NCBI GenBank assembly: GCA_963697655.1
Contig: CAVOOV010000014.1
Coordinates: 38,118-102,117, forward strand
DNA length: 64,000 nt
Direction: 5' to 3'
DNA from: an uncultured Solirubrobacterales bacterium
GTDB lineage: Bacteria > Actinomycetota > Thermoleophilia > Solirubrobacterales > Solirubrobacteraceae
Positions 42,679 through 60,299 of this stretch are shown here, in pieces. The notes beneath the pieces were generated by a model. That model had not been told where the DNA came from, ran no database searches, and saw only the letters and a list, made by a program, of their open reading frames with translations. Positions within the stretch are counted from its first letter, which is position 1; each line of letters opens with the position of its first letter. The position numbers were made by a program, and so were the translations under genes.

Positions 42679-43692
42679 ATGACCGCGGTCAAGCTCACGT
42701 CTCTGTCTCATGGCGCCGGCTGCGCCTGCAAGGTACCCGCGGCGCTGCTCGCGCCGCTGGTTGACGCGCTTCCTCGATCTGAGGATCCGAACCTGCTGGT
42801 CGGGACCTCGACCTCCGATGACGCCGGCGTCTACCGCGTGCGCGAGGACCTCGCGCTGGTCCAGACCGTGGACTTCTTCACCCCGATCGTCGACGACCCC
42901 TACGACTTCGGCCGGATCGCTGCCACCAACGCGCTGTCCGACGTCTACGCGATGGGTGGACGACCGGTGAGCGCGCTGAACCTGGTCGCGTGGTCGATCG
43001 AGGAGCTCGGCTCCGAGATGCTCGGCGAGGTGCTGCGCGGCGGTCACGACGTGGCCACCGCCGCCGGGGTGGTGATCGTCGGCGGTCATACGATCGACGA
43101 CCCCGAGCCCAAGTACGGGATGGCGGTTACCGGCTTGGTCAACCCGGACGAGGTGATCACGAACGCCGGCGGCCGGGCCGGAGACGTGCTGGTACTGACC
43201 AAGCCGGTTGGCGCAGGCGCGGTCACGACGTCTTTGAAGAAGGGACTGGCCTCCGAGGAGGTGCTGGCAGCGGCGGTCGAGGTGATGACCGAGCTGAACG
43301 AGCCCGGGTCGGCGGCGGCGCGGGCAGCCGGCGCTCGGGGGATGACCGACGTCACCGGGTTCGGCTTGCTCGGTCATCTGCACGAGCTGGCACTCGCGAG
43401 TGGCGTGGCCGCGGTCGTGGACGCGCCGGCGGTCCCGGCGATCCCGGGCGCGCTCGAGCTGCTCGAGGACGATCGGGCGGTCGCCGGCGGCAGCCGCAAC
43501 AACCGCCGGTACGCCGAGGAGTTCGCGTCGTTCGACGACGGCGTCGACGAGGTCCGGCGGCGGCTCGTGACCGACGCGATGACCTCCGGCGGCCTGCTCG
43601 TGGCGGTCGATCCGTCGAGGGCTGCCGAGGTCCCCGGAGCGGTCATCGGTCGGCTCGTGGAGGGCGAGCCGGGCACGATCACGGTGCTCTAG
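42679..43692 (+). CDS. selD: Selenide, water dikinase (Cys form)
   Basis: SHGAGCACK, QTVDFFTP, NALSDVYAMGG, TDVTGFGLLGH, TSGGLL. Confidence 0.97.
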   Translation: MTAVKLTSLSHGAGCACKVPAALLAPLVDALPRSEDPNLLVGTSTSDDAGVYRVREDLALVQTVDFFTPIVDDPYDFGRIAATNALSDVYAMGGRPVSALNLVAWSIEELGSEMLGEVLRGGHDVATAAGVVIVGGHTIDDPEPKYGMAVTGLVNPDEVITNAGGRAGDVLVLTKPVGAGAVTTSLKKGLASEEVLAAAVEVMTELNEPGSAAARAAGARGMTDVTGFGLLGHLHELALASGVAAVVDAPAVPAIPGALELLEDDRAVAGGSRNNRRYAEEFASFDDGVDEVRRRLVTDAMTSGGLLVAVDPSRAAEVPGAVIGRLVEGEPGTITVL

Positions 43693-44365
43693 ACGCTCGC
43701 TCCAGGGCCTCGCGCGAGGCGACCCCGAGCAGTCGCCCGTCCGGGGTTGTGACAATTGCGAAGCCCAAGTTCTTCTCCGCCAGCTGCTTGGCGATCCCGG
43801 CGGCGGACCGGTGCGGGCGCACCGTCGAAGGGCCGAGCTGCATGACGTCGCCGGCAGTGCCGTCGGACCCACGGTCGACGGCGCTTGCAGGCAGGCGGCC
43901 GAGCACGACGCCATCGGAACTGGTGACCACCGCGAACGGAAACGGCGAGCGCTCGATCGCCTCGAGCACGCCCGCCGCGCGGTCGGTCGTGGCACAGCGG
44001 ACAACCTCGTCGCGCATCGTGCTTCCCACGATGGGTGGATCGGGCTCCTCTCCCTCGACCTTCAGGCCGTGGGCGAGCCAGTCGACTTTGCCCGGCTCGT
44101 AGTCGTAAACGTCATCGAACCCGAGCATTTCGAGCCGGCACGCGGCTCGCGCACTGAGGTCTCAGAGCGAATCCCAGCAGTACACGACGACCGGGCGCTC
44201 CCGGTCGAGCACGGTCACGGTGTGCTGGTCGAGCTGCCGTAGCGGCAGGTTGCTCGCGCCGGGAAGATGCGCCGGGGCGTAGTCGTCCTCCGGCAGCACC
44301 TCGACCACCTGGGCGCCCCGGTCGATCAGCTCCTTGAGTTGTTCCAGCCAAATCCGGGTTGCCAT
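43679..44365 (-). CDS. Rhodanese-CBS protein, probable selenoprotein (TGA at 44162-44164)
   Basis: ORFs 44162..44365 and 43679..44128 are one frame: VVYCWDSL-U-DLSARAACRLEMLGF; hairpin follows the TGA. Confidence 0.8.
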
Positions 44366-56492: not shown

Positions 56493-57455
56493 ATGGCTGG
56501 GGCTGACGAATCGCTCGCACAACGGCTCCTCGCCGGCGACCGCCGCGCGCTCGCCCGCGGGATCTCGCTGGTCGAGAACGACGACCCCGAGGGGTGGGCG
56601 CTGGTCAAGGAGGTCTATCCCCGCACCGGCCACGCCTCCGTGATCGGCGTGACCGGGCCTCCGGGGGCCGGGAAGTCGACGTTGCTGGGCGCCCTGACCA
56701 AGCTCGAGCGGGCGCGCGATCGGACCGTGGCCGTGCTGTCGATCGACCCGACATCGCCGTTCACCCAGGGCGCCCTGCTCGGCGACCGGATCCGCCTGAC
56801 CGACCACTTCCTCGATCCGGGCGTCTACATCCGCTCGATGGCCAGCCGCGGCGCGCTCGGCGGCCTGAGCGAGGCCGCGCTCCAGGCCGCGCTGTTGATG
56901 GACGCCTCGGGGCGCGACATCGTGCTGCTCGAGACCGTCGGCGTCGGCCAGGCCGAGGTCGACATCATCGACCACGCCGACACCGTCGTGCTCGTGCTGA
57001 TGCCCGGCTCGGGCGATTCGATCCAGGCGCTGAAGGCCGGGGTGATGGAGATCCCCGACGTGATCGTCGTCAACAAGGCCGAGCACCCGCTGACCGACAC
57101 GATGGTGCGCGAGATCAGGAACGTGCTCGCGCTCGGGCCGAAGGGCGGATGGAAGGTCCCGATCGTCAAGACCGAGGCCGTGAACGGCGTCGGGATCGAG
57201 GAGCTGGCCGAGAAGCTCGCCGAGCACCACGCCTACGTCGAGGCCGAGGGCACGCTGTCCGAGCGCCGGCGCCGCAACCTGATGAACGAGGTGCTGGCGC
57301 TGGCGACGTACCGCATGCGCCGCGAGCTCGAGGCGTCGGTCCGCGAGGATCCCGAGGTCCAGCAGTTGCTCGACCGGGTCGTGGCGCGCGAGATCGACCC
57401 CGCCAGCGCGGCCACCACCGTGCTCGAGCGGCGGGCCGAGGAGCTCGCGCGATGA
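56493..57455 (+). CDS. meaB: Methylmalonyl-CoA mutase-associated GTPase
   Basis: GPPGAGKST, DPTSPF..GALLGDRIR, ETVGVGQ, NKAE. Confidence 0.94.
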   Translation: MAGADESLAQRLLAGDRRALARGISLVENDDPEGWALVKEVYPRTGHASVIGVTGPPGAGKSTLLGALTKLERARDRTVAVLSIDPTSPFTQGALLGDRIRLTDHFLDPGVYIRSMASRGALGGLSEAALQAALLMDASGRDIVLLETVGVGQAEVDIIDHADTVVLVLMPGSGDSIQALKAGVMEIPDVIVVNKAEHPLTDTMVREIRNVLALGPKGGWKVPIVKTEAVNGVGIEELAEKLAEHHAYVEAEGTLSERRRRNLMNEVLALATYRMRRELEASVREDPEVQQLLDRVVAREIDPASAATTVLERRAEELAR

Positions 57456-57922
57456 GCGCGGCGCTCGCGCCGGCGTTCCTGGTCGCCTCGCTGCTGTTGT
57501 GCGTGTCGGGCGCGCTCAAGCTGCGCTCCGGTGGGTCGGCGATGCGCGCTCTCGGGGCGGGCGAGGTGGCGCTCGGCGCCGTGTGCGCGGCGCACCCGAC
57601 CCAGGCGCTGGCGGTGGCGCTGGCGGTGGTCTACGCGGTGTTCGCGGGGGTGGCCGTCGTCCTCATGCGCCGTCGACTGGCGTGCGGGTGCTTTGGAGAG
57701 AACGACTTTCCAGTGTCCGCCGGCCACTGCATCGCCAGTGCCCTACTGGGGACGCTGGTGTTGGCGGCGGCGGTCGCCGGGCCCCGTGGGCTCGGCTGGG
57801 TCTTTGGGCGAGCGCCGGGCACGGCGGCCGTGCTCCTGATCGGGATCGCCGGCGCGGTGTACGCGGTCGTGCTCGTGTATACCGTTGTGCCGCGCGCCTG
57901 GGGAGCCTGGGAGCGGGCATGA
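57452..57922 (+). CDS. MauE/DoxX-family redox membrane protein
   Basis: SGALKL, CGCFG; TM helices. Confidence 0.8.
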   Translation: MSAALAPAFLVASLLLCVSGALKLRSGGSAMRALGAGEVALGAVCAAHPTQALAVALAVVYAVFAGVAVVLMRRRLACGCFGENDFPVSAGHCIASALLGTLVLAAAVAGPRGLGWVFGRAPGTAAVLLIGIAGAVYAVVLVYTVVPRAWGAWERA

Positions 57923-58541
57923 CCGCCGGCGACCGTGTGCTGGGGCGGCTCGGGGCACTGCTCGAGCGGCGCACCTCGCGGCGTGGGGCGCTCGCGCGCG
58001 CGGCGGTTGCCGGCTCGGCGCTCGCGGTGGCGCCGGTCCGCTACCTGGTCCGTCCCGGCACGGCGTGGGCGGTGCTCCGGCCCGGGACTGCGCCAAGGGC
58101 ACCAAGTGCACCGACGGCTACACCGCGTTCTGCTGCGAGATCGAGAACGGCAACAACGCCTGCCCGCCGAACACGTACATCGCGGGCTGGTGGAAGTGCA
58201 CGAGCTACCGCGGCCACGGCCTCTGCCACGACCAGGGGGTGCGCTACTACATCGACTGCAACCGGTTCCCGGGGACGGTGTTCCCGGGCGGCTGCCAGTG
58301 CGCCCACGGCGACTGCGCGCATCGGGCGGTCGACTGCAACCACTTCCGCTACGGGCAGTGCAACACCCAGATCGGCGGCACCACCGAGGTGGTGTGCCGG
58401 CTGGTCGTGTGCCAGAACCCGGCGACCGTGCCCTCGATGAACTGCAACGGGACCGAGATGGTCGACAACCGGACGTGCACGCACAACAACCCCTGCCTCG
58501 AGGGCCTGGGGATGCAGCTGCCGGGAGGAGGCGGGGCGTAG
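57919..58541 (+). CDS. Tat-exported Cys-rich protein, distant methylamine dehydrogenase light-chain (MauA)-like; frameshift near 58085
   Basis: TSRRGAL Tat motif; DGY, CPPNT..AGWWKC, YYIDC; 18 Cys. Confidence 0.7.
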
Positions 58542-59204
58542 GTGGTCGCGCTGGTGTCGGTCGAGACCGTGCTGTTGGTTCTGCTCGTCGTGCTCGTCGC
58601 GGCGCTGCTGCGCAGCCACGCGGCGATCCTGCGCCGGCTCGGCCCGGACGACGGTGCCGACCGGGGCGCGGACGGGTTGGGCGTGCCGGCGCAGCCCCGG
58701 TCGGCGATCCGCCCCGACGCGCCGGCGCCGGAGCTAGCCGGCGTCACGCCCGCCGGCGACGCGGTCAAGCTGTCGTTCGCGGGCGCGTCCGCGGGGCCGA
58801 CGCTGCTTGCGTTCCTGAGCACCGGCTGCACCAGCTGCGCGGGCTTCTTCGACACGCTCGGAGATCGACGCGCCCTGCCCGGTATGCGGCGCGTGATCGT
58901 GACCCGCGGCGCCGACCGCGAGCAGCGCGTCGAAGCTGCGCTCGCTGGCGCCGGCGGACGTTCCGGTGCGTGATGTCCTCGCAGGCGTGGGATGACTACG
59001 CGGTGCCCGGCTCGCCCGTACTTCGTGCTGATCGAGGACGGGGCGGTCCGGGGCGAGGGCGTCGCGACCACGTGGGACGCGCTCGCATCGCTCGTCGGCG
59101 ATGCGGTCGAGGAGCAGCGCGAGGAACGTGACCTCGAGGCGCGGCTGGCGGCGGCCGGCATCGGGCCGGACCACTCCAGCCTGTACCCGGAGGGCCCGCG
59201 CTGA
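58542..59204 (+). CDS. MauD-like membrane-anchored thioredoxin-fold protein; frameshifts at 58920-59020
   Basis: N-terminal TM, FLSTGCTSC, Y.VPGSPYFVLI. Confidence 0.75.
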
Positions 59205-59854
59205 GCCCGCTGCTGGTCCTCGGTTGCGCAGCTGCGATCACGGCCGCCGTGGTGTCCGCCTGGTCCCCCTGAGGCGAGTCGATGCTCGCGAGCATCACCC
59301 CGCTCGGAGAGCGGGGCCGCCGTTCAAACTGGTGGGTGACGGTGACCGCGTTCCTGATCGGCGCCATCGCGGCGTCGGCCGGCGCCGGCGCGGCCCTCGG
59401 GGCGCTGGGCTCGGTCGCGCTGCCGGCCCACCCCCGGTTGGCGGTCCTGCTCGGAGCGATAGGAGTCGCGATCGTCCTGGACGGCCTGCCCCTCGCGGTT
59501 CCCGGCCCCCGGCGGCAGGTCGACGAGCGCTGGCTCGACCGGTACCGAGGCTGGGTGTACGGGGCCGGGTACGGTGCGCAGCTCGGGCTCGGCGTGACCA
59601 CGATCGTGTCGAGCGCGGCGACATACGTGACGGTGCTGGCGGCGCTCCAGACGGCGAGCGCTCCGGCCGGCGCGATCGTCCTCGGCTGCTTCGGCGCCGT
59701 CCGCGGCCTCACCCCGCTGGCTGCCGGCGGCGTGCGAAGTCAGCGCCAGCTGGTCGTTTTCCACCGTGGCCTTGCGCGCTGGCGCGCCTGGGCCAGGTGG
59801 GGCGCGGTCGCAACGCAAGCCGGGATGCTCGTGCTCGCGCTCGCGCTGTCGTGA
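59201..59854 (+). CDS. MauF/DsbD-like membrane protein, probable selenoprotein (TGA at 59270-59272)
   Basis: In-frame SAWSP-U-GESMLASITP; probable CTG start overlapping the previous stop; RQVDERW, YGAQLGLG. Confidence 0.75.
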
Positions 59855-60299
59855 CCAAGCTCGAGGCGCACGGGCTGCGCGATCGAGCTGCCGAGGGGGT
59901 GGAGCGGGCGGGTGTTCAAGCGCGCCCGCGGCGGCGCCACGCTTCACGCCGGCGACTTCGAGCTCCCGCTCGACGACGGGGAGTTCGGGGACCAGAGCAC
60001 CGCGGTGATGCCCCCCGGCACGACGTTCCTGGCGCTCACCGAGTACCTGCCCGGGGGCGGGACTCGAGCCGGGCAGGGGACTGTTCGCGGCCCGCCGGGT
60101 CCCGAGGGTGCTCGACCCGACCAGCTTCAGCGCCAGGGGGCTGGCCCACCCCCGCCCGGACCAGGCCGGGACGCAGCACTTCTTCACCGCGGTGGGCCGC
60201 CCGTTCTGCCTGTACGTCGTGATCTCCGGCGCCCGGACCGAGCGCAGCCGCCAACTCGCGGCCCTCGGCGGGGTGCTGCGATCGCTGCGGATCGACTGA
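59851..60299 (+). CDS. Hypothetical protein, last gene of the mau-like operon (frameshifted)
   Basis: GTGA overlap; pieces LHAGDFELP..GEFG and QHFFT...RPFCLYVV. Confidence 0.6.

Follow-up and report, generated by a model that had tools for sequence, protein, structure and literature searches.

A MauF-like membrane protein with a probable selenocysteine in its W-S-P-C-G motif, encoded by an uncultured Solirubrobacterales bacterium

MauF is a genetically required helper in the biogenesis of methylamine dehydrogenase (MADH) and, to our knowledge, its role has remained functionally unexplained for decades in the mau literature. Pairs of homologues with selenocysteine (Sec) in one and cysteine in the other usually mark redox-active cysteines. 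The name MauF is in use in RefSeq; neither Pfam nor NCBIfam has a model for the protein, and a search of the literature for MauF or CcdA as selenoproteins found no paper linking MauF to selenium. The known bacterial membrane selenoproteins include the GUxSG form of YeeE/YedE, the rhodanese/DsbD-fusion TsoB and a transporter of the SO_0444 family (PMC13188914, Table 1). A review of May 2026 lists 119 prokaryotic selenoprotein families (PMC13188914), and both MauF and an S-P-U-G motif are absent from that list. None of the curated NCBIfam selenoprotein models matches the protein described here.

The window analysed is a stretch of 64,000 nucleotides from an uncultured Solirubrobacterales bacterium (assembly GCA_963697655.1, contig CAVOOV010000014.1, positions 38,118 to 102,117 of the forward strand), and its relevant features are collected in Table 1. 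An initial annotation had pointed to a TGA in frame at the WSPCG cysteine of a MauF-like protein. The sequence at 59261-59284 reads TGG TCC CCC TGA GGC GAG TCG ATG, in which the TGA shares its frame with an ORF of 190 aa that begins at ATG 59282 and ends at 59854. Reading through the TGA gives a frame that stays open and hydrophobic to beyond 59201 on the upstream side, in agreement with the hydrophobic frame that the annotation had traced back to CTG 59201, and that continues downstream as far as the stop at 59852-59854. The N-terminal extension gained by read-through, LSPLLVLGCAAAITAAVVSAWSP-U-GESMLASITPLGERGRR, is hydrophobic, and the peptide across the Sec codon is SAWSP-U-GESMLASITPLGER, with SAWSP-U-GESM as the motif of the window. 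From the comparisons given below, we consider it highly probable that this UGA is recoded as Sec in a MauF homologue, by means of a putative SECIS element within the ORF.

Table 1. Positions of the MauF-like gene, its predicted recoding signals and the associated genes in the window.
Feature	Position	Strand	Basis or remark
selD (selenophosphate synthetase)	42679-43692	+	TIGR00476, 388 bits, at about 42691-43620; in the window
MauE-like membrane protein, CGCFG motif	57452-57922	+	PF07291, weak match
Tat-signal Cys-rich exported protein, presumed client	57919-58541	+	One frameshift near 58085
MauD-like thioredoxin-fold gene, CTSC motif, N-terminal membrane anchor	58542-59204	+	Broken by two single-base indels
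Full-length gene of the putative MauF-family selenoprotein	59201-59854	+	217 codons plus stop; reading frame, alignments, hhalign to MauF
Putative Sec codon (UGA), motif W-S-P-U-G	59270-59272	+	Sole invariant Cys/Sec column of the MauF-like family
190-aa truncated ORF from gene callers	59282-59854	+	Lacks TM1 and the Sec residue
Hairpin 1	59281-59296	+	6-bp stem GAUGCU/AGCAUC (59281-59286/59291-59296), variable 4-nt loop, -7.2 kcal/mol
Hairpin 2, best SECIS candidate	59298-59316	+	8-bp G+C-rich stem, loop GGA, -15.9 kcal/mol
Conserved downstream gene, unassigned	59851-60299	+	GTGA overlap; frameshifts near 59880 and 60050

The beginning of the gene was located by alignment. No in-frame ATG, GTG or TTG occurs between the stop at 59129-59131 and GTG 59249, and the codon at the aligned start, 59201, is CTG, which overlaps the stop of the upstream gene as CTGA (59201-59204). 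In the relatives, the gene starts 21-26 codons 5' of the Sec codon, and its start codon shares bases with the stop of the preceding gene as ATGA, GTGA or TTGA; the closest relative, the contig L265, has CTGA at this place like the window (L265:3420). The codon at 59201 could be a real CTG start or a site of re-initiation through translational coupling.

The read-through protein has 217 residues, with the predicted Sec24 at the end of the first transmembrane helix (TM1). A confident AlphaFold2 model (pLDDT 90.9) shows about six such helices, with a helix break at the Sec. The family alignment, A1, contains one invariant Cys/Sec column, in the motif S-P-C/U-G-x-S-M; R105, Q106 and W111 are among the other invariant residues, and the Met that follows the Sec/Cys column is invariant in the Cys forms too. 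The MauF used as reference was that of the mau cluster on plasmid 1 of Paracoccus denitrificans PD1222 (NC_008688, WP_011750949.1, L294:16738-17568). Comparison of A1 with this protein by hhalign gave a probability of 99.1% (E 9e-19, 178 columns), and the window protein alone matched it by BLASTP with an E value of 2e-4. The P. denitrificans protein, homologous according to hhalign, does carry WSPCG (LLSTWSPCGYSS; in its longer context, LLSTWSPCGYSSISLL), a motif that the initial annotation had attributed to MauF-type proteins.

Scans of Pfam and NCBIfam with the read-through protein, the Cys forms and MauF itself returned no family, a result explained by the missing MauF model; for want of an HMM, homologues stay "hypothetical" or receive a wrong label, TauE/SafE or CcdA, from some pipelines. 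No match came from a profile search against PDB sequences, and fold searches with the AlphaFold2 model returned generic helical bundles only, with no significant solved structure; the best VIA Z-score of the model, 6.8, was to halves of MFS proteins. No match was obtained either when plasmids were searched by tblastn with the window protein and the MauE part. A subfamily of Cys forms (L043:1468-2892, and also L041, L045, L046, L048, L049 and L051-L053), with the sequence WSPCGFSMIETIGP, is 470-500 aa long; members of the L043 type are extended at the C terminus by about 250 residues, which contain repeat-like strands and match no Pfam family.

The alternation between TGA and Cys codons was followed among the homologues, as the initial annotation had proposed. 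Among related genomes and metagenomes, 87 distinct sequences have a TGA in the Sec column with both flanks open, a recurrence far beyond what chance would produce, and 93 others have a TGC or TGT there; both the alternation and the position of the TGA at the WSPCG cysteine were thus confirmed. Six-frame searches of 201 genomes of the same order detected 13 relatives, in four families, with one TGA inside the match, and a second copy on contig 17 of the window's own genome has one as well. In all of these the TGA falls in the same column, as WSP-TGA-G[EQ]SMLASITPLGER or, in a second clade, YSP-TGA-GLSM. Among the Cys forms, one member of the same genus has FSPCGQSM, and more distant homologues have WSPCGFSM. 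When metagenomes were scanned for the codon pattern W-S-P-TGA-G-x-S-M, at least 120 contigs were retrieved, and about 72 of the 78 contigs that were read proved to be family members; a back-translated Cys-form scan of species genomes gave 419 relatives. One locus, L040 (unpublished genome G175), was left out of all counts and alignments.

The same TGA appears to have shaped the public gene calls. In a collection of 5.8 billion proteins, each of the 120 closest homologues listed begins with MLASITP, so that these calls must start at the Met that lies four codons past the TGA; the prediction that gene callers would truncate the protein at ATG 59282 was therefore correct. A profile search gave 5032 representatives at E <= 1e-3, and among the best 150 of these, 63 begin at the post-TGA Met, as truncated Sec forms, and 86 carry SPCG. 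The outcome is a systematic misannotation, as public gene calls lack TM1 and, with it, the predicted active residue.

A FastTree phylogeny in which 80 Sec and 93 Cys forms were rooted on MauF required at least three Sec/Cys changes and placed three well-supported Cys clades nested among the Sec forms; as the rows of this tree were sampled by the feature itself and its root is a long branch, neither the direction nor the frequency of the change can be read from it. The sequence L181, which does not resemble a family member, was left out of this tree and of the nucleotide alignment A2, a gap-free alignment of the 87 distinct TGA forms that covers the TGA plus 51 nt.

Both stems announced downstream of the TGA in the initial annotation, GATGCT/AGCATC and a hairpin with a GGA loop, are present (hairpins 1 and 2 in Table 1). 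Hairpin 1 begins 8 nt past the UGA. Hairpin 2 has the sequence CCCCGCTC-GGA-GAGCGGGG, in which 59298-59305 pair with 59309-59316 and the spacing from the UGA to the loop is 33 nt; in a shuffle test, none of 200 shuffled sequences folded as well. Since RNAalifold returned only three pairs on A2, pairs were counted explicitly. The two-hairpin pairing was found in 93.5% of the cells of A2 compared with 83.3% in column shuffles, none of 500 of which reached the observed value, and only 35-54% of the cells pair when the partners are slid by one to three columns. Cells changed on both sides of a pair numbered 85, against 17.6 expected. In hairpin 2, compensatory changes affect seven of the eight pairs (C-G to U-A 15 times, G-C to C-G 17 times and U-A to C-G seven times, among others), and several of them alter the encoded amino acid. 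In hairpin 1 a single pair is swapped, from C-G to G-C on 13 occasions, and variability is highest in its 4-nt loop. The structures accompany the TGA: hairpin 1 is fully paired in 76 of 89 Sec forms versus five of 93 Cys forms, and at least seven of the eight pairs of hairpin 2 are formed in 77 of 89 versus two of 93. An alternative first hairpin proposed by RNAfold, GCGAGU/GCUCGC, needs the variable loop and is not conserved, and it was rejected.

The consensus for bacterial SECIS elements consists of a loop of 3-9 nt, a stem of 4-16 bp, a G in the first two loop positions, a UGA-to-loop spacing of 16-37 nt and an energy no higher than -7.5 kcal/mol (PMC13188914). Hairpin 2 agrees with the consensus in every respect, the loops of the family being GGN or CGUGN, whereas hairpin 1 alone departs from it in its spacing of 14 nt, its energy of -7.2 kcal/mol and its lack of a conserved loop G. 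For this reason hairpin 2 is taken as the putative SelB site, and hairpin 1 is likely a conserved accessory element. The proposal of a selenocysteine with a SECIS element is thus supported by the alternation of TGA with TGC/TGT and by a covarying hairpin that fits the bacterial consensus.

The presence of the Sec machinery was examined in the genome of the window, as the initial annotation had also suggested for selA, selB and selC, and the first two were found. A selA gene is located on contig 2 (280 bits, above the cut-off), and selB adjoins it in pieces that fall below the cut-off; each of the two spans two reading frames (contig 2:120851-123752), probably as a result of indels in the assembly. 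The selD gene that the annotation had reported in the window was located (Table 1). The genome also has its own gene for the formate dehydrogenase alpha subunit, fdhA (TIGR01553, 974 bits), with the expected Sec UGA at contig 1:126903-126905 in the context QARI-U-HSST and, 12 nt on, the hairpin GUCCCC-GGUCU-GGGGAC. The third gene, selC, was not found in the 88.9%-complete assembly: the best matches to RF01852 were tRNA-Ser, and searches by regular expression, by blastn-short, by nhmmer with the tRNA-Sec of relatives and by synteny did not detect it. A tRNA-SeC predicted by ARAGORN at contig 4:43531-43627 was rejected for its poor arms and the absence of an Rfam match. The assembly is an incomplete metagenome-assembled genome (MAG), so that the missing selC does not prove an organism without it; homopolymer or indel errors in a long-read MAG may also lower the completeness estimate.

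A tRNA-Sec (65-69 bits) was detected in nine of ten relatives with the TGA form that were tested, compared with one of five Cys-form genomes, a co-occurrence that is supportive but does not lend itself to a statistical test because related genomes are non-independent samples. In the Cys-form member of the same genus, whose genome is 98% complete, no tRNA-Sec was found.

A separate candidate selenoprotein was seen in the window in the form of a rhodanese-like ORF on the minus strand, convergent with selD. It contains an in-frame TGA at 44162-44164 (VVVYCWDSL-TGA-DLSARAACRLEMLGFDD), and a 7-bp hairpin starts 7 nt past this codon.

Five translationally coupled genes lie downstream of meaB, with the MauF-like gene in fourth place, and this gene order is conserved for Sec and Cys forms alike. 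The MauE assignment is strengthened by the paralogous protein of contig 17, which matches PF07291 with 37.2 bits, above the cut-off. The Cys-rich exported protein has about 18 invariant cysteines in its alignment (A4) and the motifs CPPGT, GGWW and FRYGQCN; it belongs to no assigned family, and comparison with MauA gave no sign of a relationship. An intact paralogue of the MauD-like gene (L263:2835-3551) matched P. denitrificans MauD by BLASTP (2e-8) and TIGR02661 weakly. The MADH subunits PF06433 and PF02975 had no match in the genome, a weak result given that the controls also failed to match. With neither a relation to MauA nor MADH subunits found, the MauF machinery appears to serve another client here.

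The operon on contig 17 of the same genome (304189-307191, equivalent to L263:1690-4692) is intact. MauE and the Cys-rich protein share an open frame there, and a MauD-like gene with a CAAC motif and the downstream gene are present as well. Its Sec-MauF gene starts with ATG and has the TGA and both hairpins of the window copy, to which it is 52% identical. By comparison with L265 (86% identical), single-base indels were detected in the window near 58085, 58929, 58968, 59015, 59880, 60050, 60123 and 60173, all of them in the neighbouring Cys-rich, MauD-like and downstream genes and none within 59201-59854. We read those in the neighbouring genes as errors of a long-read assembly, recent decay of these genes or of the window copy being a less likely alternative.

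Three other explanations of the TGA were weighed. The codon could be a true stop, with a functional product of 190 aa translated from ATG 59282 and the 23 upstream codons forming a small ORF or leader. This would agree with the public gene calls, all of which start at the equivalent of Met 59282, with the position of that Met four codons past the TGA and with the lack of a canonical upstream start in the window copy. However, the Met is no less invariant in the Cys forms, whose reading frame is uninterrupted, and TM1, which the 23 codons encode, is conserved across all forms as well as in MauF. As the hairpins, moreover, covary only in TGA forms and the TGA form co-occurs with tRNA-Sec, genuine termination at this codon seems very improbable. 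The recurrence of the same TGA in independent data sets, in 86 further distinct sequences, makes it extremely unlikely that the window copy is a pseudogene or that a TGC was turned into TGA by an error-prone long-read assembly. Those sequences include contigs with an identical local peptide and L265, and the assembly errors seen are indels, not substitutions, with the gene itself free of them. The CTG start, the single-base frameshifts in the neighbouring genes, selA and selB, and the existence of an intact paralogous operon on contig 17 nevertheless speak for a degenerate or wrongly assembled copy.

A reading of the UGA by a near-cognate tRNA (Trp or Cys), or in a reassigned code, would dispense with selenium, and the failure to find selC in the assembly is in line with it. 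Yet TGA terminates both the window gene and the gene upstream (59202-59204), selA, selB and selD are present, relatives have tRNA-Sec, and the SECIS-like structure is kept only alongside the TGA, so that decoding of this kind has next to no probability in our view. The recoding of the UGA as selenocysteine is the reading on which the following proposal is built.

In the mechanism proposed, the complex of SelB with Sec-tRNA would be recruited by a SECIS within the coding sequence just 3' of the UGA, the best candidate being the hairpin at 59298-59316, which the conserved second hairpin at 59281-59296 precedes. The predicted product would be a 217-residue MauF homologue in which the sole invariant redox residue, the Cys of W-S-P-C-G, is replaced by Sec. 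Judging from the gene context and from the redox rule for Sec/Cys pairs, this Sec-MauF would most likely supply the selenol/thiol component, in the membrane, of a relay that handles disulfides and matures the Tat-exported Cys-rich protein. Having only one redox residue, it would need to engage a partner protein in mixed selenylsulfide bonds instead of forming an internal disulfide. As Sec/Cys alternation usually marks a catalytic redox Cys, it also predicts that the Cys of WSPCG is the active residue of MauF.

Sec-MauF would represent a family of integral-membrane selenoproteins that is missing from public inventories and widespread in soil Actinomycetota. A bolder view, which we put forward tentatively and hold to be rather unlikely in its entirety, is that MauE, MauD and Sec-MauF constitute an undescribed selenium-dependent transmembrane redox relay, by which soil Actinomycetota would mature Tat-exported proteins of a new class with many disulfide bonds, that Sec is ancestral in the actinobacterial MauF and was lost to Cys at least three times, and that the tandem of two hairpins is a distinct SECIS architecture.

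With the membrane selenoproteins YeeE/YedE, TsoB and SO_0444, the window protein shares its integral-membrane nature, a Sec at a conserved Cys and a bacterial SECIS within the ORF, the last two as predicted here; in contrast, the NCBIfam and Pfam models of those families do not match it. CcdA and DsbD (PF02683, PF13386; 5vkv) resemble it in being small polytopic membrane proteins with S-P-C at a helix break of TM1 and with extracytoplasmic thioredoxin-fold partners, and a language-model search pointed weakly to DsbD_2 clusters. The window family has one invariant Cys/Sec, whereas CcdA and DsbD have two conserved cysteines, in TM1 and TM4. Homology to CcdA was rejected, as hhalign gave 3.4% and aligned the SPC motif only. 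No Pfam match of the family to PF02683 or PF13386 was obtained, a DsbD_2 scan of the genomes of relatives found nothing, a DsbD_TM scan matched other genes and not the window gene, and in a Foldseek search with the model 5vkv ranked 25th, without significance (E 0.86, TM 0.34).

The closest described system is that of MauF. The window cluster differs from mauFBEDACJG in its order, which is E, Cys-rich, D, F and not F-B-E-D-A; the heavy and light chains of MADH were not detected here, and the Cys-rich neighbour is not detectably MauA. The window protein is shorter than MauF (217 versus 277 aa), without the N-terminal extension of about 55 residues, and has a predicted Sec in place of the Cys. 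Both proteins, on the other hand, have W-S-P-C/U-G where the first transmembrane helix ends, they share the motifs R-x-Q-V and Y-G-x-x-L-G-L, and both genes lie beside homologues of MauE and MauD.
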